Below are positions 8,224-34,952 of a DNA stretch of 44,207 nucleotides, piece after piece. Below the pieces are notes generated by a model that ran no database searches, was not told where the DNA came from, and saw only the letters and a program-made list of their open reading frames with translations. Every line of letters starts with the position of its first letter. The stretch's first letter is position 1. The translations under genes were made by a program, and so were the position numbers. The DNA is from a virus (lineage: Duplodnaviria > Heunggongvirae > Uroviricota > Caudoviricetes). Where the stretch lies: IMG/VR virus record IMGVR_UViG_638341086_000016, one strand, 5' to 3'.

Positions 8224-8570
8224 TTTTCCCCTCCCAGNCGACAGAGAATTTCCAGACGCCCGCCGGTCGCATCCGGCACGGGCAGCCCGACAACGTTCAG
8301 GATCCGGTCACGCCATGGACCACTCAGCACATGAAGTCGTGACGCTGCCGTGATTTCCCGGCCGGACTGACCGCGCACCCAGATGCGGATTTCCGCCTGC
8401 GCCATTTCCGCACCGGACTGCATCCGCTCCCGGCTGCTCCTGCCACGGATATCCGCATGAATTTTCCCGCATGACACCCATTCTTCCGTCATTTCTCCGG
8501 CAGCATTACGGGTTAACACCGGGTTCAGAACACTTATCATCTGTGTCAGACGACCTGCAGATATTGCCAT
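8220..8570 (-). CDS. head closure / head-tail adaptor protein
   Basis: 116 aa; ...ADIRG...SGREITAAS... pattern typical of head-tail joining proteins; contains one ambiguous codon. Confidence 0.6.
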   Translation of the reverse strand: MAISAGRLTQMISVLNPVLTRNAAGEMTEEWVSCGKIHADIRGRSSRERMQSGAEMAQAEIRIWVRGQSGREITAASRLHVLSGPWRDRILNVVGLPVPDATGGRLEILCXLGGEK

Positions 8571-20968: not shown

Positions 20969-22819
20969 TTATGCTGCGGGTGCATTTATCTCCAGCACCA
21001 GACTTTCTATCTCAACGCCATACGCTGCATTTTTTGTAACATCCGTCAGCGTCAGCGCATTCAGCCCCAGTGTCAGACTGTCTTTTATGACCTGGAATGC
21101 CGGGCCAGCCACTCCATTCAGTTTCGGAGTAACCGTGGCACTGCCGGCGGTGAACACCAGCTCCAGCGTCTGCCAGTCGTTACCGTAATCGCCGAACTCC
21201 CCCAGCTTCGTGTTTCCGNCTTTCCTGTGATGCATCAGATTCACTCTGCCGTCAGTGGTCTGAGTNAAGTACGACATCAGGAACGGATTACCGGTACCNG
21301 TCATCGCCACACCATCAGGAACGGGAGCNTCCGTATACAGATAAATCCCCAGCCCGAACTGATNGTTGGTCAGTGCGCCTGACAGGCGGAACTTACAGGT
21401 CAGTCTGCCGCCCTGTGTCAGCAGGGTAATTGTGTCATCCACCGGATGCGTCAGGGACCAGGNTTTATTGCTCTGCTTGGNGATCTTAAATACACCATCT
21501 GACAACTGAATTCCGCCATCCTTAATGCTCCAGCCCTGCGCAGCAGCCTCTCCGGCTGTCGGCAGCAGGGAGATTGTACGGACGGATGTATCTTCAGACG
21601 GCCCTGATGGTGTGTCATCGCCGGGAGAGGGTTTGATCTCCGGGGCTTTACCGCTGATGAAGGCGCTGGTTCGACCAACTGCGTTCAGAATAGCAGTTGC
21701 CAGACGATCAGGAATAATGCCCCTGCGCGCCCATGAACTGAAATGTGTCGGACGATTTGACGATACCCAATTACCATTACTACGGGATTGCGCGCCGTAA
21801 TAACCTGCATCAGCAATATCCGGGTCTTCTGCCGGTAAGTTGGTGGGCGTGTTGTTGCCGTTACCGTCTGTCATGAAGGGCACAAAATAAACGCCCTCAC
21901 TCTCCCTGTTTTTATACCCGCCGTACACGGTGTCGTACTGGGTAGCGTATGTATTTTTCCAGTAATACGTCGTGTCACCACAAATCCACGGCACATCTGC
22001 AGCACTGCCACCATGGCACTGCGCGTTAAACACGGAGAGGTCAGCACGAAACTGTGTCAGCATGGCTGTAAACAGCGCAGGTTGCTGTGCGTGGGTGGCG
22101 GCGCTCATGTCAAACTCACCCTGCATCCAGCAGACGGCCAGCAGAACGTTTTTGGGATTTTTCTGCAATGCCGCTTTTGTGCGGGAAATCAGATCCTGAT
22201 ATAACGGCTTGCCCACCCCCCAGCGTGCCGAATCCTGACTGGCCCCCGTGGACTCGCTGAATGTCCCCTCCGCGCCCTGGGTAAATGCCGAACCACCACG
22301 ACAGCATGGTACCAGCAGGATCCCCGCGTTATTCGGGATATACGGGAGCAGTTTTTTGGCAATATGTAAACCCTGGCCGACACAGCCGTACTGCCCTTTG
22401 CTCAGGTCAGCCCTCGGATGATTCAGCGTACTCATATCCTGCACATCATGCAGACAGTGGTCAGCCGGAATAATATCGTTATATCTGCAGGCAGCCCCGC
22501 CCGGCGTCACTGTACTGCGGCGCGCCAGCTGTTTAATGCGCGGATCCGGAGCATCGTATGAATCCGGCAGCGGAAGCCCTTCACCGTAAGCCATGGCATT
22601 GGACTGCCCGGCCAGTACGATGACGTAGTACCAATCCGGCTCAGATGAAGGGCCGACCTGTGGCTCTCCTTCAATAGCCACCGCCTGCATCAGTGTGTAC
22701 GGCGTAATGGCAACCGGTCCGCCGTATGGCTGCCAGCCCTCTTTCAGTTTGTGTGTCAGCTTTTCCGCAAGGTCTGACGGCGACGCCGCCCTGACAACAT
22801 CATAATGTTTAATCGACAT
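20969..22819 (-). CDS. nanS-p: prophage sialate O-acetylesterase NanS-p (DUF1737 N-domain plus SASA/SGNH esterase domain)
   Basis: 616 aa; N-terminus MSIKHYDVV...; esterase motif VLAGQSNAMAYGEG; position between holin and the stx-equivalent slot; several X residues from ambiguous bases. Confidence 0.8.
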   Translation of the reverse strand: MSIKHYDVVRAASPSDLAEKLTHKLKEGWQPYGGPVAITPYTLMQAVAIEGEPQVGPSSEPDWYYVIVLAGQSNAMAYGEGLPLPDSYDAPDPRIKQLARRSTVTPGGAACRYNDIIPADHCLHDVQDMSTLNHPRADLSKGQYGCVGQGLHIAKKLLPYIPNNAGILLVPCCRGGSAFTQGAEGTFSESTGASQDSARWGVGKPLYQDLISRTKAALQKNPKNVLLAVCWMQGEFDMSAATHAQQPALFTAMLTQFRADLSVFNAQCHGGSAADVPWICGDTTYYWKNTYATQYDTVYGGYKNRESEGVYFVPFMTDGNGNNTPTNLPAEDPDIADAGYYGAQSRSNGNWVSSNRPTHFSSWARRGIIPDRLATAILNAVGRTSAFISGKAPEIKPSPGDDTPSGPSEDTSVRTISLLPTAGEAAAQGWSIKDGGIQLSDGVFKIXKQSNKXWSLTHPVDDTITLLTQGGRLTCKFRLSGALTNXQFGLGIYLYTXAPVPDGVAMXGTGNPFLMSYXTQTTDGRVNLMHHRKXGNTKLGEFGDYGNDWQTLELVFTAGSATVTPKLNGVAGPAFQVIKDSLTLGLNALTLTDVTKNAAYGVEIESLVLEINAPAA

Positions 22820-22899
22820 CGAATTTCTCCCGTGTACAGGAACAGAGTTAAAAAGCCGGAATCAAATCGCAGGATGAACATCTGCCAGTGGCTGGTCGT

Positions 22900-22926
22900 A
22901 AAAAAAAGGCCGCGCCATGCGCAGCC
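22900..22926 (-). terminator. strong intrinsic terminator upstream of nanS-p
   Basis: 8-bp stem GGCUGCGC-AUG-GCGCGGCC (one G-U pair) followed by U8-9 on the - strand. Confidence 0.6.
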
Positions 22927-23141
22927 GGAAATAAAGGGATAACGATGATAGTTTGAGAAAAACAGAAATAACACTTTTGTGGCAAAGCATGGTGCCGGGT
23001 GCCTCCCGGTGAATTCAGCCGGTGTCACTGAACCCGCGTCGGCTTGCCTATAACATAATAAATGCTACCCACACCAGTCGCCCCTCCGCACAGGGGGATT
23101 CACCATGCAGAAGTGTTTTTAATAAACAGCAAACAAAAAAA

Positions 23142-23312
23142 TCAAGCATTATGCAGGCTGTTTCTTTTTATCACCGGCCACAGCAATACCACAATGCCGC
23201 AGACCAGCACCCCATCCGCCAGCACCGACATGATTCTGCTGGTGAAATCCACCATCACCACCAGAAACAGCAGGAGTGCAGCCACAGCCAGGCGCAGTTT
23301 TACCGTCACAGG
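23142..23312 (-). CDS. small hydrophobic two-helix membrane protein (about 56 aa), translationally coupled to the TerB-like gene
   Basis: Hand-translated: GTG overlapping the TerB-like stop (GTGA) then VTVKLRLAVAALLLFLVVMVDFTSRIMSVLADGVLVCGIVVLLWPVIKRNSLHNA; below the 60-aa track cutoff. Confidence 0.4.
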   Translation of the reverse strand, partial: PVTVKLRLAVAALLLFLVVMVDFTSRIMSVLADGVLVCGIVVLLWPVIKRNSLHNA

Positions 23313-23767
23313 TGATTCTCCAGACGAAGACCCAGAACACCGGCAATCTCTTCCAGCACCTTACACTCTTCCGGCTCAATTTCGCCTTCGGCCTCCGCAA
23401 TGGCCACCGCCACATCCAGCACATCTTCCGCTTCACGCGTATCGTGTTTCACATCCTCGATCTCACGTAACGCCGCACGACGACCAATTTTAAAGTTCGT
23501 ATCCAGCTGACCGATAATGGTTGCGCTCATCGCATTAATTTCTGACGTAAACGCGGACAGCGCTGGCTGATTACGCAGTACCTGTTCGATCTTCGCTTTC
23601 TCGGAAGCCTCACATTCACCATCTGCACAGGCCACCAGGTATGCGGCGTTAATCACCGCCTGTGCCAGATCGCGTTTTTCAAACTTTTTAATTTCCGTTG
23701 CCGCTCTGCGGGCTTTTTTTACCAAAAATACCAAACATCGTGACGTTCCTTTGGGTGGGTGAGCCAA
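23306..23767 (-). CDS. TerB-like (tellurite-resistance TerB family) protein; 5' end apparently frameshifted in an A7 run
   Basis: 153-aa track ORF with TerB-type LVACADGECEASEKAKIEQ block; the only RBS-preceded ATG (about 23738, AAAGGAAcgtcacg-ATG) is in another frame and stops after 16 codons at the A7 run (about 23713..23719). Confidence 0.6.
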   Translation of the reverse strand: MAHPPKGTSRCLVFLVKKARRAATEIKKFEKRDLAQAVINAAYLVACADGECEASEKAKIEQVLRNQPALSAFTSEINAMSATIIGQLDTNFKIGRRAALREIEDVKHDTREAEDVLDVAVAIAEAEGEIEPEECKVLEEIAGVLGLRLENHL

Positions 23768-23909
23768 CGCCCGGGAGCGATCTGCCCACAGAGAAAGTCA
23801 CACTGACCACTCCGTAAGCTCCCCCCCGAAAGGCTCTGTGGTTGGTATGCGCCGGGCGTGGCGCGGATACAAAAAAGGTCCGCAAAAGCGAGCGAGGGAA
23901 AATAAGTGT

Positions 23910-23986
23910 GGTGCGTTGTACTGGGTTCGAACCAGTGACCGATTGCTTAGAAGGCTGGCGTTCTATCCCGATGAGCTAATGGCGGT
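23910..23986 (-). tRNA. tRNA-like sequence, Arg(UCU)-type anticodon loop, probably degenerate
   Basis: Reverse complement contains D-arm TAGCTCA...ATAGAAC, loop CTTCTAA and T-arm ACTGGTTCGAACCCAGT, but acceptor and anticodon stems do not pair in my reading. Confidence 0.4.
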
Positions 23987-24062
23987 TGGTGGCCCTTGCT
24001 GGATTTGAACCAGCGACCTGGCGATTATGAGTCGCTCGCTCTCACCACTGAGCTAAAGGGCC
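23987..24062 (-). tRNA. tRNA with anticodon CAU (Ile2/Met type, ileZ-like as in Stx-phage tRNA clusters)
   Basis: Reverse complement GGCCCTTTAGCTCAGTGGTGAGAGCGAGCGACTCATAATCGCCAGGTCGCTGGTTCAAATCCAGCAAGGGCCACCA folds as a cloverleaf (acceptor GGCCCTT/AAGGGCC, D-stem GCTC/GAGC, T-arm GCTGG-TTCAAAT-CCAGC), encoded CCA. Confidence 0.8.
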
Positions 24063-24071
24063 GAGCGCAGG

Positions 24072-24100
24072 ATGATAACGTTACGAAATCAATGTTGCAA
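24072..24100 (-). promoter_or_regulatory. candidate sigma-70 promoter directly upstream of the tRNA genes
   Basis: On - strand TTGCAA - 17 nt - TATCAT, with the -10 ending about 9 nt before the tRNA 5' end. Confidence 0.45.
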
Positions 24101-24282
24101 GAGTTCACAAATTCACTGATTCAAAATTATTCTTGTAAAAAATCTTTTAACGTCAGGCACAAAGAGCCTGTACATAGATTTGTGTAATTGCCTGATTTTG
24201 ATATGTTCAATCCAGCATCAAATGAAGGTTAATTTATGGACGAAAAACAGTTACAGGCTCTAATGACCTTTATACGATTGAC

Positions 24283-24375
24283 CCAAATAAAAAAAGCCAC
24301 CGTTGCAACTTAAGAGTCACTAACGGCAGCTTATGCGAATAGTGTTGCTCATTTGCTCAACGATGTCAACACGTT
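24283..24375 (-). promoter_or_regulatory. candidate late promoter region downstream of Q (-35 TTGACA at 24364..24369) with a U7-tailed weak hairpin (about 24290..24325)
   Basis: Perfect -35 hexamer just after the Q stop but no convincing -10; the hairpin CCGTT...AACGG followed by TTTTTTT could be a tR-prime-like terminator. Confidence 0.3.
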
Positions 24376-24864
24376 CTATGCTACATGTTTAATTTTCTCT
24401 ACACGTTTCCGGTTTTTAAACGCACTATCCAGAATCGGATAAATCATAAACAACGAGGCATTGAGGATTTCGTCAACTTCCCGTCGACAGGTTGCTAGCG
24501 ATGGTTTTTGAATGCGCCCGCCGCCCCGGCATAACATCTTGCGAGGTCTTGCGACGCTATGATAGTAAGATGCAATGGCGTGCTTGGAAGAGCCGTGGGC
24601 GTAGTAGCTGAGGAGGATGCCAAAGGCTTTCTTGTCAATGTACATGACGGAATCGACGACCTGAGAAATCAACATTCCATCATCATCATTACACATTGGC
24701 CTTGTCATAACTCTTCCCGGCTCCACGCTCTCCATGAATTTAGCTATTACGCTGCTCATGCGCTTTTCCAGACGACCTGAATAAACCCATGCGCCCCACA
24801 GTTCAAGCCAGCCATTCAGCCACTCATGCTGTTCTTTGGTGAGGTTTAGTTCTCTTATGCCCAC
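24376..24864 (-). CDS. Q: late antiterminator Q (phage-21/82-type)
   Basis: 162 aa; [11 protein letters not shown] block and Cys/His-rich middle typical of the antitermination-Q family; located between nin genes and the tRNA/lysis region. Confidence 0.8.
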
Positions 24865-26924: not shown

Positions 26925-27602
26925 TCAGTAGCGATGCAGTGAAGGCGGCAACTCTTTGTTCTTAAGCCTTTCCCATGCCAGAAGGTTCGTCGGCCCGTCA
27001 GGCTCATAAATATCTATATCCCGCGTGTGATTAATTAAAACGCCCCTCGCCCTCCCGATGATATACGAGAACTCATAGCCGTAGTCGTGGCATATGCCGG
27101 AATAGCCAGACTGAATCAGTTTTAATGCGGGATACAACTCACGGAACAATGCCTGTGAGCGGTTGGCATAATCCCACAGCCATACAAGGCTGTCTGTTTC
27201 TTTTGCGGAAAGCCCGTTGAGCTTCTTCTCTTGTTTGCCAGTATTTTTCTCGCACTGGCTGAAATAGCAGTCTTCCAGTTTTTCGAACACATCCCACGCC
27301 TGATCGGTTTCGAGCATTTTTGCGTGACGGGCTGCGCCGCGTTCTGTCCAGAGGATGAGGGAGCGGGCATTTTTACCAACTAACCCGATTGTTTCGGGTC
27401 TGTTCTTAAACTCGCGTAATTCGTTTTTTTCAATTTTAAAGTAATGCTTTCCGGGCATGAATCGCGTCGTGTTGTTCAGAAAGTTATCAGAAATGTTTTT
27501 GATTTTTGTTCCGTAAAGGTGAGCCAACAGTTCAGTAGTAATTACGGGGATCTGGTTATAGGTAACAGGGGAAAGGTTTTCGACAGAAATTTGAACAGCC
27601 AT
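26925..27602 (-). CDS. antirepressor-type N-terminal domain protein (ORF6N/KilA-N-like)
   Basis: 225 aa; block ...[38 protein letters not shown]... resembles ORF6N/Rha-type regulatory domains; flanked by terminators on both sides. Confidence 0.5.
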
Positions 27603-27763
27603 AATGACCTCGCGTTTCGATAATTTTTACCTCGCCACCGTCAGGTGCTAATCATCGTGGTGGCGAACTGTGCGGGGTTAGCACTACCGGTCGAAACATC
27701 CGGCGAGCCTTTCGGCTCCCCCACACAGCCCGCCATAAATCGCGAATGTGACTGTGCTTAGCG

Positions 27764-27788
27764 CATAAAAAAACCGCCAGCGCGGTTA
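27764..27788 (-). terminator. terminator-like hairpin AACCGC-CAGC-GCGGTT plus U-run downstream of ninE
   Basis: Same 6-bp stem as at 5937 and 13650; A7 on + strand. Confidence 0.5.
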
Positions 27789-27877
27789 TGCACCGTTTCG
27801 ATATCCGGGGTGCTAATCCCGACGCCAGATTTTGCTGGCGCGTGAGGAATATAGCCCCGAATAAATCATCGCGTCAA

Positions 27878-28060
27878 TCACCTTGTTTTCCTCGCACGAT
27901 GTCTTAGCCACCGGATATCCCACAGGTGAGCCGTGTAGTTGAAGGTTTTTACGTCAGATTCTTTTGGGATTGGCTTGCGTTTATTTCTGGAGCGTTTCGT
28001 TGGAAGGTATTTGCAGTTTTCGCAGATGATGTCGGTGATACATCTTCGCTGTCGCCTCAT
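27878..28060 (-). CDS. ninE: NinE-like protein
   Basis: Internal start of track ORF gives about 60 aa [60 protein letters not shown]. Confidence 0.7.
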
Positions 28061-28584
28061 GCCGCCATCCTGACGCCCTGCCCGATCGCCATCAATGCCG
28101 CTTTGGATACNGTAGTAAACATNCGTCGAGGACTGATGAACGGTCGCCAAATCAGCAGCATGGANCCTTTGCTGTTTCCCTTCTTCTCCAGCCCTGTCGA
28201 TGGTTCGATAAAATTAATCCGTCCATCAGTGATAATGCGAACTTCGTCAACACTCTCCAGAGCCTTGCTGAACCATCCGACTGACATATCCTCTGGTACA
28301 AGCATAACTACCGTCTGTCGCTGTTGTATGCACTGCTCAGCGGCTTTTTCCACCCACGGCCTGATATTGCTGTACGGTGGGTTATTCCAGATTGCACCGT
28401 GGCTTACCCACTCAGAATTGAGCGCGTCGTCGGCCTCAGTTAGCCAGTGAGCACACAGAGCATTTTTGTCGCTCGCTGCCGAATCCAGCCAGAATCCAAA
28501 CTCAATATCCAGTGCATCAAAAAGCCAAAGCGGCGTTTGCCAGCAGTCCTTGTCGTGTGCTGGCGTATTTGATTTGATAGTCAT
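28057..28584 (-). CDS. DNA N6-adenine methyltransferase (phage Dam-like)
   Basis: 175 aa; N-terminal ...[13 protein letters not shown]... and catalytic NPPY motif (IWNNPPYSN); C-terminal part contains X from ambiguous bases. Confidence 0.8.
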
Positions 28585-29027
28585 GCAGCCCTACCTTTTC
28601 GTTGTGACCATTCATACTCTCGCCGGGAGTCATCACTCCACCGCACGTTGCGCTCTGAGCCGAACCAGAACATGATTTCGATAAGCTCAGTCATGCTGGC
28701 CTTCCGCATTTTGCTGGTACGCACGCCAAGCATGACAACGCCACCGTCGATACCAGGCACACTTCGTTGCTCCAGTTTTTTGGTCTTAAGCCACAGGGCA
28801 GTGAACAGGTCTTTCCAGTCTTCCGGCGCCAGCCGTTGACCATGCCATAGCACCTGACGCGAAACATCGTTCAGCATCGGCCACATACGGTCATTCTGCG
28901 CTTTGCTGCGCCTGGGTTCTTTAACGTGGACTTCGTGGGGTGACTTGTCGTCGATGGGTAGTGAGAGAATGGCGTCTATGGCGTTATTTCTGATTGCTTC
29001 GTTGCGAAGCAGAAAGGNTTGCTTCAT
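28581..29027 (-). CDS. ninB: NinB-like recombination protein
   Basis: Internal start MKQ(X)FLLRNEAIRNNAIDAILSLP...; conserved ...QNDRMWPMLNDVSRQVLWHGQRL... and C-terminal ...SERNVRWSDDSRREYEW... as in lambda NinB. Confidence 0.75.
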   Translation of the reverse strand: MKQXFLLRNEAIRNNAIDAILSLPIDDKSPHEVHVKEPRRSKAQNDRMWPMLNDVSRQVLWHGQRLAPEDWKDLFTALWLKTKKLEQRSVPGIDGGVVMLGVRTSKMRKASMTELIEIMFWFGSERNVRWSDDSRREYEWSQRKGRAA

Positions 29028-29220
29028 CTCCTGCTCTCCGGTTCCATTTTTCAGCCGCCGCAGCAACTGATGGTGCCCATGCCCCCCTGGCTTCACAGAG
29101 GTCACATTCTGCATAGCCCCACACATCAATATTTATTCCGGCCTCAACCCACAGACGAGCATTACCGCCGCAAAACGGACATTCTTTTAGCTTTGGCTGG
29201 GTTAATGATAGGTCGCTCAT
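28984..29220 (-). CDS. Lar-family restriction-alleviation-like zinc-ribbon protein
   Basis: Internal start (AAGGAG RBS) gives MSDLSLTQPKLKECPFCGGNARLWVEAGINIDVWGYAECDLCEARGAWAPS... with two Cys pairs; 3' end uncertain (ambiguous base, overlap with ninB). Confidence 0.5.
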   Translation of the reverse strand: MSDLSLTQPKLKECPFCGGNARLWVEAGINIDVWGYAECDLCEARGAWAPSVAAAAEKWNRRAGDEAXLSASQRSNQK

Positions 29221-29230
29221 GCTCACTCCT

Positions 29231-29446
29231 TCACTTAAAATCCAGACTCCGGATAATTCTGTTGCGCTGAAACTCATTGTTGAGTTTGAACAACCGTCGA
29301 AGAACACGGTCACGCGGATAGCGTCGTGCGGCAGGTGAATGCTCATACAACTCATCAAGCGGCAAACTGAACGATGAACGATACCGATACCAACGCACCA
29401 ACTCTTCACGAAAATTAGCCCTGACAAGCTCAGCTATCGTACTCAT
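29231..29446 (-). CDS. hypothetical protein
   Basis: 71-aa basic ORF directly upstream of the Lar-like gene. Confidence 0.35.
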   Translation of the reverse strand: MSTIAELVRANFREELVRWYRYRSSFSLPLDELYEHSPAARRYPRDRVLRRLFKLNNEFQRNRIIRSLDFK

Positions 29447-29578
29447 TTCTTAAAACCTCCTCAAACGCATTCTGACGCATTTTTCATTCTCGCTGCTTAT
29501 TGGCATACCTTGCACGCGTTTACCTCGCTACAGAGCGATTGTGATGCCTTAAAAGCGATTTATTGAAGTGATATTTGC

Positions 29579-29872
29579 TTAATCGAAATTCTTTTCTTTG
29601 ATTCCTGCGGCCCTGATGGCTTTCATTACTGCAATTACCGTTTTGTCACGCCCATCCTCATAACCCATCGCATAAGCACCTTCTTCACCATCTTTCCAAA
29701 GGTCGTCATTCGATTCGGGCCAGTCGATATCCAGTTCAATAGCTGCTCGTGATGCCTGCCATATCACCCAGGCAAACTCTTTTAATTCATCGTCTTCTGT
29801 AAACTGGCTTTTGTCTTTTGACCACCAGTTTTCAAACTGTCGGTAGCTATCGTTCACTTCCCTCTCCCCCAA
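29579..29872 (-). CDS. hypothetical highly acidic Trp-rich protein
   Basis: 97 aa with about 25 percent Asp+Glu (…WPESNDDLWKDGEEGAYAMGYEDGRD…); no family recognised. Confidence 0.45.
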   Translation of the reverse strand: MGEREVNDSYRQFENWWSKDKSQFTEDDELKEFAWVIWQASRAAIELDIDWPESNDDLWKDGEEGAYAMGYEDGRDKTVIAVMKAIRAAGIKEKNFD

Positions 29873-29927
29873 ATAAAAAGGCCTGCGATTACCAGCAGGC
29901 CTGTTACAAGCTCAGTGATGTAGATGG

Positions 29928-30218
29928 TCATCTTTTAACTCCATATACCGCCAATACCCGTTTCATCGCTGCACTCTGGCGACACTCCTTAAAAATCAGG
30001 TTCGTGCTCACCTTTCCTTCCCGTTCTTCCCTGGTAGCAAACCGGTAATACACCGTTCGCCAGACCTTACCTTCGATAACCAGAAGACCTGCCCGTGCCA
30101 TTTTAGCCGCGGCCTGATTTATGCTGGTTACTGTTGCGCCTGTTAGCGCGGCAACGTCCGGCGCACAGAAGCTATTATGCGTCCCCAGGTAATGAATAAT
30201 TGCCTCTTTGCCCGTCAT
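29928..30218 (-). CDS. ren: Ren protein
   Basis: 96 aa MTGKEAIIHYLGTHNSFCAPDVAALTGATVTSINQAAAKMARAGLLVIEGKVWRTVYYRF..., essentially lambda Ren. Confidence 0.85.
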   Translation of the reverse strand: MTGKEAIIHYLGTHNSFCAPDVAALTGATVTSINQAAAKMARAGLLVIEGKVWRTVYYRFATREEREGKVSTNLIFKECRQSAAMKRVLAVYGVKR

Positions 30219-30916
30219 ACACTTGCTCCTTTCAGTCCGAACTTAGCTTTAATTTCTGCGATCTTCGCCAGCGCCTGAACATGATTTAGAGGTCTGCCGC
30301 CCATGACAGGAAGTTGTTTTACTGGTTCAGGGATCACCTCACCACGATTAATTCTCGCAGTCATATGGACAAGCTCATCTGCGGCCTTGCGCCGTAATTC
30401 CGCGTCAGTCAGCGCATTGGCCCGCATGTTCTGGTACAGGTTGGTAACCAGCCAGTAGTGCGCGTTNGATTTCCACGGATAAGACTCTGCATCCGGATAC
30501 AGGCCNCGCTTCCGGCAATACTCGTAAACCATATCAACCAGCTCGCTGACGTTTGGCAGTCCGGCGATAACGGATGCTTCTTCCCGGCACCATGCAACAA
30601 ACTGCCCGGGTGATGGAAGAAATGGTCGATTCTGCCGACGGGCTACGCGCATTCCTGCGTTAACCTGTTCCATCGAGGTGATCCCGTTTTCCCGGAAAGC
30701 CAGAACCCACTGGCGGCGGATTTCATTCAGTTCGTTCTGGTCCCGGTTAGCCAGACTCGCCGGGAAAGTTGCCAGTAACTGGCTGAACACACCGTTGATG
30801 ATCTGCGCTACCTGTTGTACCTGCGGCTTTTCGTCGTACTGTTCCGGCATGTTGTTGGCGATCAGACGCATCTGCTCACGGTCAAAGTTAACCATCTGTG
30901 CGGCGATGTTTTTCAT
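30215..30916 (-). CDS. P: replication protein P (DnaB helicase loader)
   Basis: 233 aa, lambda P-like over full length (MKNIAAQMVNFDREQMR...KFGLKGASV); two X residues. Confidence 0.9.
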   Translation of the reverse strand: MKNIAAQMVNFDREQMRLIANNMPEQYDEKPQVQQVAQIINGVFSQLLATFPASLANRDQNELNEIRRQWVLAFRENGITSMEQVNAGMRVARRQNRPFLPSPGQFVAWCREEASVIAGLPNVSELVDMVYEYCRKXGLYPDAESYPWKXNAHYWLVTNLYQNMRANALTDAELRRKAADELVHMTARINRGEVIPEPVKQLPVMGGRPLNHVQALAKIAEIKAKFGLKGASV

Positions 30917-31784
30917 AAATCCACCCCGTAAATCCAGTCAGTGTTTGTCAGGTCGAGTTTTGGTTTTCCAGCTGTCACGCCAGCCTGTTGCTTGTTACGG
31001 TTGATTTCGAGTTGGGTCCACTTGTCGCGGAGTTTGGCCGGACTTAGCACGTTACCGGACCAGAAGTTGTCCTGGCATGCCCAGCGGAACAGCACGCACA
31101 TATCGCGGTGGTTACGTCCGTCACGTTCACGCATCAGGCGGATATCGTTAGCCCACCCTGCAAAATTCGGTTTTCTGGCTGATGGTGCGATGGTCTTCAC
31201 CATGTCAAACATCCACTCTGCGGCGGTCAGGTCTTCTGCTGTTCCCCACTTGCTGCCGCTCTGAATTGCAGCATCCGGTTTAACCACAGAAAGATCGTTT
31301 TCTGGCTGGTCAGAGGATTCGCCAGAATTCTCGGACGAATAATCTTTTCTTTTTTCTTTTGTAATAGTGTCTTTTGTGTCCCCCTGTTTTGAGGGATGTC
31401 CCTCATTTTAGGGGAACCTCCCTCGTTTTGAGGGATGCACCATTCTGAGATGTTTTTATTTGGTCCAAACATGCCGCCTTGCTGCTTGATAATATTCATT
31501 CTGACGAGTTCTAACTTGGCTTCATTGCACCGTTTGACAGGTAACTTTGTAATCTCGCTAAGTTGAGAATCGGTGATTCTGTCCATTGGTTTATTCCACC
31601 CATAGGTTTTACGCAGAATGGCAAGCAGCACTTTAAACTGTCGCTTGGTCAGATCTGCGCCTGAATAAGCCTCAATCAGCATATTTGATAGTCTGGCGTA
31701 ACCATCATCGAGATCTGCCACATTACGCTCCTGTTCGGCAAAGTTACCTCTGCCGAAGTTGAGTATTTTTGCTGTATTTGTCAT
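30913..31784 (-). pseudogene. O: replication initiator O, split into two frames inside the ori iterons
   Basis: Track ORF 31227..31784 is the lambda-O N-terminal DNA-binding domain (MTNTAKILNFGRGNF...EWCIPQNEG) and 30913..31287 is the O C-terminal domain (...AAEWMFDMVKTIAPSARKPNF...TDWIYGVDL); they are offset by one base with a TAA in the downstream frame. Confidence 0.75.
31378..31435. repeat. ori iterons (three copies of TCCCTCAAAACGAGGGA-type repeat) with AT-rich region at about 31290..31375
   Basis: On - strand TCCCTCAAAACGAGGGA, TCCCCTAAAATGAGGGA, TCCCTCAAAACAGGGGGA; lambda has four, the third appears absent here. Confidence 0.8.
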
Positions 31785-34569: not shown

Positions 34570-34679
34570 CCAGAACTTGAGTGGTTTTGGGGATGGCGCG
34601 AATTGCAGCTGCAAGACAGCGATCGAGAAGATAAACACCTCGACGCGTCATGCGCCAAAGCCACTTAAAGGAGACCATC

Positions 34680-34952
34680 ATGGTAACCATTGTCTGGAAA
34701 GAATCCAAAGGTACGGCAAAAAGCCGCTACAAAGCTCGCAGAGCAGAACTTATTGCCGAGCGACGCAGTAATGAAGCACTGGCGCGAAAAATTGCGCTAA
34801 AGCTCTCTGGTTGCGTCAGAGCAGACAAAGCAGCATCACTCGGAAGCCTTCGCTGCAAGAAGGCAGATGAATGCAGTGGAAGTATTTGCCTGCCAAACGT
34901 AGCCATTTACGCGGCAGGCTACCGGAAATCAAAACAACTGACGGCGAGATGA
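34680..34952 (+). CDS. N: early antiterminator N (phage-21-type arginine-rich motif)
   Basis: Internal start with AAAGGAG RBS gives MVTIVWKESKGTAKSRYKARRAELIAERRSNEALARKIA..., as I recall the phage-21 N ARM peptide. Confidence 0.8.
   Translation: MVTIVWKESKGTAKSRYKARRAELIAERRSNEALARKIALKLSGCVRADKAASLGSLRCKKADECSGSICLPNVAIYAAGYRKSKQLTAR

Follow-up and report, generated by a model that had tools for sequence, protein, structure and literature searches.

The window analysed here is a 44,207-nucleotide stretch of a caudoviricete genome (IMG/VR record IMGVR_UViG_638341086_000016), and the element in question is a run of five adjacent genes at 28057-29872, all on the minus strand, encoding a Dam-type N6-adenine methyltransferase, NinB, a Lar-like zinc-ribbon protein, a basic protein and an acidic protein rich in tryptophan. 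We consider it probable that this block is part of the ordinary, known and mosaic nin region of a lambdoid Escherichia coli prophage of the Shiga toxin (Stx) phage type, made of independently exchangeable cassettes rather than forming a co-evolved unit. A first-pass annotation, made from the letters alone, had read the five genes as a possible anti-restriction island; the membership of Dam and of the Lar-like protein in their families stood up to analysis, while the DNA mimic and the coordinated unit did not.

The boundaries of the five open reading frames (ORFs) proposed at first agree exactly with the ORF list, and homology, judged against curated profile cut-offs, identifies them as real genes and not chance ORFs:

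28057-28584, minus strand: dam, phage N6-adenine DNA methyltransferase, 175 amino acids (aa), PF05869 and TIGR01712
28581-29027, minus strand: ninB, NinB/Orf homologous recombination mediator, PF05772 and phrog_72
28984-29220, minus strand: Lar-like zinc-ribbon protein, candidate type I restriction-alleviation factor, 78 aa, PF14354 and TIGR03655
29231-29446, minus strand: basic DUF7301 protein, 71 aa, PF23975 and phrog_1785
29579-29857, minus strand: acidic, Trp-rich PF26207 (Phage_phiTE_015) protein, GTG start, 92 aa, phrog_343
29579-29872, minus strand: longer form of the acidic PF26207 gene, TTG start, 97 aa

This block is the already known and annotated start of a nin region common to hundreds of Shiga-toxin-type E. 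coli phages. The 2.5-kb segment compared was 99.6% identical to phage JLK-2012 and to a prophage of E. coli O55:H7 DEC5E; Stx1a phages, AU5Stx1, 933W and VT2-Sakai match 85-100% of its length at 98-98.7% identity, and phi24B matches 69% of it at 99.1%. At least 80% of it occurs in 434 of 5426 complete E. coli genomes and part of it in 3705, and the public records carry the labels "phage N-6-adenine-methyltransferase", "recombination protein NinB" and "Lar family restriction alleviation protein". Among 80 NinB-anchored loci the order DUF7301-Lar-ninB-dam-ninE recurs, but at 96-100% identity; because the full block recurs only at this level, it is one inherited DNA segment of many Stx-type phages and not an independently recurring association, and the adjacency of the genes, which had been taken as evidence of a common function, reflects that inheritance.

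Beyond this segment, the genes were found in almost every combination. The acidic gene is absent from about a dozen NinB-anchored loci; in two others (L067 and L077) an acidic homolog of 72% identity is adjacent to ninB, and both Lar and dam are missing. In 17 loci anchored on the acidic family, ninB and ninE come immediately after PF26207, and DUF7301, Lar and dam are all absent. Distant PF26207 members likewise stand between a P- or DnaB-type replication gene, immediately upstream, and ninB, without Lar or Dam. DUF7301 is kept in three loci (L146, L150, L151) where an unrelated 62-aa gene occupies the Lar slot and ninB is 46-47% identical, and the same slot holds a 100-aa hydrophobic protein in L161. 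The order is acidic-ninB-dam in L162 and L163, and in L153 and L154 dam follows a divergent protein resembling Orf/YbcN. Phages HK140, mEp332, Lambda_ev245 and 2G7b match the query at ninE-dam-ninB and ren only (about 46% coverage), and PhiR12_4 carries Lar and ninB, its listed annotations including no methyltransferase. Phage-collection records hold the dam allele 244 times (95-99% identity), the Lar allele 119 times and the acidic protein 140 times. The dam gene is an optional insertion behind an Orf-family gene, and either Lar or unrelated cassettes occupy the slot before ninB; with nearly all partial combinations present, no co-occurrence across divergent genomes beyond shared descent was detected in the loci sampled. 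Heavy gene shuffling around orf in the nin region has been described by Curtis et al. (PMC4118853). With NinB a recombination mediator and the genes so freely combined, the proposed coordinated counter-defence block finds no footing in these loci.

The Lar-like, PF26207 and 100-aa hydrophobic proteins encoded just upstream of ninB all share the terminal sequence ...SQRSNQK (28984-29027 in the window; loci L161 and L165), since their genes run, in another frame, into the conserved start of ninB; in the window, the final 44 nt of the Lar-like gene overlap the ninB start. The shared tail looks like the mark of a fixed recombination joint for cassette exchange.

The methyltransferase is assigned with ample margin, at 214.2 bits against PF05869 (E=1.2e-63; cut-off 28.1) and 260.2 bits against the TIGR01712 equivalog (cut-off 97.05). 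Its catalytic (D/N)PP(Y/F) motif reads WNNPPYS at residues 66-72, in agreement with the first reading of a Dam-type enzyme with an NPPY motif. It is identical to VT2-Sakai orf32 at 171 of 175 residues; three of the four differences are ambiguous bases of the window, leaving one real substitution (M173 in the window, R in orf32), and all four lie near the C-terminus. Because it is the sole methyltransferase annotated within the first 30 kb of VT2-Sakai, orf32 is very probably M.EcoVT2Dam, an enzyme that methylates GATC according to two articles which both cite Radlinska and Bujnicki (2001) for it (PMC6602927; PMC7556043). On account of its identity to orf32, the enzyme of the window is predicted to be GATC-specific. 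The gene is an orphan, flanked by ninB and ninE and with no nuclease gene adjacent, and PADLOC matched the protein most strongly to orphan-methyltransferase models, two type II methyltransferase models scoring more weakly.

What such an enzyme might serve can be approached from several sides. The phi24B copy of dam was detected as expressed in lysogen cultures, and its authors proposed that it adds to the activity of host Dam, on which stable lysogeny of 933W depends (PMC3342100); host Dam is also known to under-methylate the virion DNA of lambda and P22 (PMC8022706). In the window, GATC is depleted (116 sites observed versus 209 expected under a Markov model) despite the phage-encoded Dam. 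Under-methylated virion DNA and GATC depletion both fit a need for extra Dam activity, a need that could be anti-restriction, MutH avoidance or lysogeny maintenance, which the computation does not separate. Sites for EcoKI, EcoBI and EcoR124I occur in the window at chance frequency, and those for EcoAI are somewhat low (2 versus 5.6 expected). In a 2025 study of phages of enterohaemorrhagic E. coli, AntiDefenseFinder flagged methyltransferase-based functions against restriction-modification (RM) in such genomes (PMC12502783).

The Lar-like protein scored 41.3 bits against PF14354 (cut-off 28.6) and 62.3 bits against TIGR03655 (cut-off 39.6), and shares 38% identity over 53 aa with Rac Lar/RalR (E=1e-9). 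It has a four-cysteine zinc ribbon (CPFCG...CDLC) whose residues C14, C17, C39 and C42 align with the RalR cysteines, and the same gene is annotated "lar" in phi24B and VT2-Sakai. Against the RalR equivalog NF007260 it reached 26.9 bits, under the cut-off of 113, so that it does not classify as a RalR ortholog. The first-pass statement that Lar alleviates restriction in Rac was correct: genetic evidence for alleviation of EcoKI restriction is attributed to King and Murray (1995) in a later article, which itself describes RalR as a non-specific DNase toxin with a small RNA antitoxin (PMC4041452). For the allele of the window, the restriction-alleviation label would follow from family membership. 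The context of Lar-family genes was inspected in Rac and two related prophages, the family searches having recovered the local allele and the RalR clade only; in those two prophages, as in Rac, the RalR-clade genes stand after recE-recT and near xis/int, with no methyltransferase nearby. No RalA-like antitoxin or other Rfam RNA family was found inside 28057-29872.

The two genes on either side of the Lar-like one also have family assignments. NinB matched PF05772 with E=4.9e-48, and the function of its lambda counterpart Orf is described in PMC4118853. The DUF7301 protein matched PF23975 with E=1.8e-25 and has an isoelectric point (pI) of 10.8 and a net charge of +7; no relative with a solved structure was found for it.

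The acidic protein had no match in the local copy of Pfam, its assignment to the family resting on phrog_343 (E=6e-30) and on PF26207 being assigned to all its close homologs. The GTG start at 29857 (92 aa) is more likely than the TTG start (97 aa), because RefSeq uses it and because it forms a GTGA overlap with the stop codon of the ninA-like ORF upstream. A note in an old 933W record that makes P22 "ninA" a homolog of this protein was rejected, since P22 ninA is the counterpart of the 25-aa mini-ORF over tR2 and not of the PF26207 gene. A profile search of 1.84 billion representative proteins returned 651 family clusters at E<=0.001. Their N-terminus forms a conserved helical hairpin with the motifs F-E-x-W and W-Q-A-S-R-A-A-I-E, the middle segment is highly variable, and the C-terminus is again conserved (A-I-R-A-A-G-I-K-V-K). 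Some PF26207 homologs (P0103, P0108 and P0117-P0119) have N-terminal extensions, either a CxxC...CDC zinc-ribbon-like segment or a conserved "MRWAIKHKSGRTLFVTSDEFIANNRRKMGW" segment, which suggest fusion with neighbouring small genes.

The protein had been described as extremely acidic and as having a composition like that of DNA mimics. It has a pI of 4.37, six tryptophans and a net charge of -10 in the 92-aa form or -11 in the 97-aa form, with 7 of the 10 net negative charges within residues 37-66. Its charge per residue is -0.109, as against -0.239 for T7 Ocr (-28 over 117 aa), and the DUF2528 protein of the same window is slightly more acidic (-0.115), which makes "extremely" an overstatement. 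This DUF2528 protein, the most acidic of the window (122 aa, net charge -14), is Ea10-like and belongs to the pL operon, where 35811-36179 and 36482-36856, both on the plus strand, hold it and the adjacent Gam, a known inhibitor of a host nuclease.

Nor is the acidity conserved. The charged segment is a variable insert, where homologs carry unrelated sequence, and the median net charge of the family is -6 for the full set of fetched sequences and -4 for distant representatives, within a range of -15 to +4; PF26207 thus lacks the conserved, very high negative charge density of Ocr and ArdA. Two AlphaFold2 models, built on alignments of 27 and 69 sequences, were of low confidence (mean predicted local distance difference test, pLDDT, 67.7 and 68.5), with a fairly confident N-terminal hairpin, a C-terminal helix and an unstructured acidic segment at pLDDT of about 50 or below. 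Foldseek searches of the models against PDB and BFVD gave nothing below E=1 (noise only, E>=1.8), single-sequence and profile searches of PDB gave nothing relevant, BLASTP against T7 Ocr gave only an 8-residue low-complexity match, and no homology to a known mimic appeared in Pfam, NCBIfam or PADLOC. With half the charge density of Ocr, acidity that the family does not conserve and no match in sequence or fold to Ocr, ArdA or solved structures, the acidic protein is, as far as the sequence and two low-confidence models can tell, not a recognisable DNA mimic, and nothing in these analyses supports mimicry.

The operon in which the block sits bears on when it would be expressed; the features around the block are the following:

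30215-30916: P, replication gene, upstream of ren in the pR operon
29928-30218, minus strand: ren, Ren-like exclusion protein, phrog_142 (E=8e-42), RefSeq "protein ren"
29854-29931, minus strand: ninA-like 25-aa mini-ORF (translation MTIYITELVTGLLVIAGLFIWGRGK), enclosing the tR2 hairpin
29879-29902, within the ninA-like ORF: hairpin of the intrinsic terminator tR2, an 8-bp stem followed by TTTTTATTT (terminator scan)
27878-28060, minus strand: ninE, PF05322 (E=3.6e-42), RefSeq NinE family protein
27656-27854, minus strand: isrK / c4 antisense RNA / a1b1 target module, Rfam RF01394 (76.6 bits), RF01695 (75.1 bits) and RF03163 (50.6 bits)
26925-27602: ant, antirepressor gene with Ant domains, 3' of the isrK/c4/a1b1 module
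34650-34952: N gene

Upstream of the block lie a cII-type regulator, O, P and ren, all in the pR operon of a lambdoid prophage; ren is the final gene ahead of tR2 and the upstream boundary of the nin region. The hairpin, the T-run and the downstream Shine-Dalgarno stretch are identical in phage P22, in whose record the matching hairpin is annotated as terminator tR2 inside ninA. Stop and start codons overlap as ATGA at ren/ninA, ninB/dam and dam/ninE and as GTGA at ninA/PF26207, and ninE closes this tightly coupled chain on the downstream side; such overlaps fit the classical description of ninR as a "chain of interlinked genes" (PMC8022706). Position, tR2, the ATGA overlaps and the order P, ren, tR2, ninB, ninE, ninG, Q all place the block in a lambdoid ninR. 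Repeats and extra promoters inside it did not exceed chance.

Because the block sits behind tR2, its expression is expected, by analogy with lambda, to be delayed-early and N-dependent; the early expression proposed at first should read delayed-early and N-dependent, with tR2 upstream. Transcription from pR would pass tR2 by N-mediated antitermination and then run through a translationally coupled chain of ren, ninA, PF26207, DUF7301, Lar-like, NinB, Dam and NinE. In this scheme NinB loads recombinases onto single-stranded DNA coated with single-stranded-DNA-binding protein, and Dam would most likely methylate GATC on rapidly replicating phage DNA, so that progeny stay fully methylated; this could block methylation-sensitive GATC cutters, avert MutH nicking or supplement host Dam in lysogens. 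By analogy with Rac Lar and lambda Ral, the Lar-like protein may lower restriction, and raise modification, by EcoKI-type (type IA) systems. Lying about 3 kb into the pR operon and behind a terminator, the block would be poorly placed to protect incoming DNA.

On the downstream side the block is limited by a separate unit. The three Rfam matches at 27656-27854 are all above the gathering score, and with ant they compose an RNA-controlled antirepressor module of the P1/P7 immI type and the Gifsy IsrK type, embedded in the nin region and containing terminator-like sites at 27795-27772. Beyond ant follow a KilAC/Roi-type gene, ninG, a phosphatase gene and Q.

That the five genes instead make up a coordinated, early anti-restriction island, in which Dam would modify the phage's own DNA, the Lar-like protein would alleviate type I restriction and the acidic protein would titrate restriction enzymes as an Ocr/ArdA-like mimic, seems to us very improbable. 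Such an island would accord with the confirmed families of Dam and Lar, with the low pI and net charge of the acidic protein and the -7 carried by its central 30 residues, with the tight packing of the genes in one transcription unit and with the co-localisation of anti-defence genes in mobile elements (PMC11724313). Set against this are a charge density below half that of Ocr (-0.11 versus -0.24 per residue), PF26207 members ranging up to +4 with medians of -4 to -6, the position of the most acidic segment in a variable insert of pLDDT 50 or below, the missing match to Ocr or to any solved structure, and the occurrence of each gene apart from the others in related phages; the role of NinB is in recombination, and a site some 3 kb behind the promoter and past tR2 would shield incoming DNA poorly. 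A rather different division of labour, possible though on balance doubtful, would have the Lar-like protein, NinB and Dam serve recombination, replication or prophage maintenance and not counter-defence, the Lar-family protein acting on DNA beside recombinases and Dam supplementing host Dam for lysogeny stability or to avoid MutH nicking. RalR, the only Lar-family member studied beyond the original alleviation phenotype, is indeed a non-specific DNase (PMC4041452), and the Lar genes examined adjoin recombination genes (recT in Rac and in the two related prophages, ninB here); dam usually follows an Orf-family gene in the loci sampled, including the divergent Orf/YbcN-like one, and the expression of phi24B dam in lysogen cultures with the proposed supplementing of host Dam (PMC3342100), the under-methylation of lambda and P22 virion DNA by host Dam (PMC8022706) and the depletion of GATC point the same way. 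However, Rac Lar alleviated EcoKI restriction genetically in the work of King and Murray (1995), as cited in PMC4041452, the score of the present allele, far below the RalR cut-off, gives no ground for ascribing DNase activity to it, orphan methyltransferases of phages are widely regarded as anti-RM devices, and nearness to recombination genes could simply mean that non-essential cassettes are tolerated there.

The interval from tR2 to ninB might also be a collecting point for small counter-defence or host-takeover genes, each of them (Lar, the 62-, 68- and 100-aa cassettes, PF26207) having a different host target, which we regard as unlikely. It would explain the alternative, unrelated genes in the slot between DUF7301 and ninB, the fixed ...SQRSNQK joint and the conserved termini and highly variable centre of PF26207 across its 651 clusters; yet the roles of the cassettes are conjectural, variability among small genes characterises the nin region as a whole and need not signal anti-defence, PADLOC gave no match save the methyltransferase models for Dam, and our literature search found nothing on PF26207, phiTE_015 or DUF7301. 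A more specific version, somewhat less probable again, would make tR2-ninB a fixed-joint cassette hotspot and PF26207 a large inhibitor family, whose termini form a scaffold and whose hypervariable, often acidic middle sets the target, with Lar and the 62-, 68- and 100-aa alternatives as separate anti-defence factors. Several points also weigh against the ordinary mosaic nin region that we prefer. Current anti-defence annotation tools count Dam and Lar-family genes alike as anti-RM. These two genes lie 0.4 kb apart, and functional synergy between them is conceivable, as is a charge-based inhibitor role for the PF26207 protein, which stands in the acidic tail of the phage proteome and whose models are of low confidence. 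Any role given to the Lar allele, DUF7301 or PF26207 would be putative, and, since near-identical E. coli prophages make up most of the related loci sampled, the case for a mosaic is qualitative and not statistical.

Were the island real, it would give Stx-type phages several anti-restriction mechanisms in one compact cassette, a new family of DNA mimics among them, with consequences for the host range of toxin-converting phages. With the mosaic nin region as the preferred reading, the practical value is small and lies in confirming that the prophage carries a VT2-type Dam and a Lar-family gene. The remaining novelty resides in the uncharacterised but widespread PF26207 and DUF7301 families, which are candidates for anti-defence screens, and in the possible accessory-gene hotspot between tR2 and ninB.

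Some further observations concern the window as a whole. It contains 15 ambiguous bases (N), three of them in dam and one in ninB/lar, where they give X residues; they lie at 8238, 21219-21481, 28111-28165, 29018, 30467, 30506 and 36712, with a cluster of seven in the esterase gene, and point to a source sequence of draft quality. The O gene is split into overlapping ORFs at 31227-31784 and 30913-31287 (region 30913-31784, junction near 31398); relative to the DEC5E prophage, its ori iteron array is 67 bp shorter, with loss of iterons and a shift of frame, which could be a real prophage defect or an assembly collapse of repeats. Between N and the Ea10/Gam region only sieB was seen, on the opposite strand, and no homolog of lambda ral was found among the ORFs examined. 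In the early-left arm, near the integrase gene, an ALIL frameshifting pseudoknot at 42020-42136 (Rfam RF01497, 119 bits) together with two overlapping ORFs (41204-42417) indicates an IS3-family insertion sequence.

Compared with known systems, the methyltransferase resembles M.EcoVT2Dam and the small phage Dam family, also present in T1-like phages, in its length of 175 aa, its NPPY catalytic motif and its orphan status. The Lar-like protein shares with Rac Lar/RalR, of which lambda Ral is a functional analogue, the zinc ribbon (CPFCG...CxxCE), the E(K/R)WN(R/K)R motif and a small size (78 versus 64 aa), but RalR follows recT in the pL operon whereas the Lar-like gene precedes ninB in the pR nin region and owes its C-terminal tail to the ninB overlap. 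Like T7 Ocr and ArdA, the acidic protein is small, acidic and phage-encoded; unlike them, it would be delayed-early and not first-expressed, and the searches showed no sequence or fold similarity to either.

The nin regions of the Stx phages 933W, VT2-Sakai, phi24B, Stx1a and JLK-2012 have the same order of acidic ORF, DUF7301, Lar-like, ninB, dam and ninE. The window, JLK-2012 and 933W have lambda-type O, P and ren upstream, while VT2-Sakai and phi24B have a DnaB-type helicase instead. Unlike the Stx phages, the window has no ORF large enough for stx downstream of Q: the interval from Q to the 616-aa SASA-type esterase (22819-24376), which is the stx site in those phages, lacks an ORF of the size of the stx A subunit and holds instead the small RNA STnc100 (22951-23137), a TerB-domain ORF (23306-23767) and a tRNA (23990-24062). 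With the ninR of lambda and P22 the window has in common the location between the replication genes and Q, tR2 in the ninA mini-ORF, the ATGA links and ninB, ninE and ninG; those two phages have no dam, Lar, DUF7301 or PF26207 at this position, whereas in the window such cassettes are inserted around ninB.

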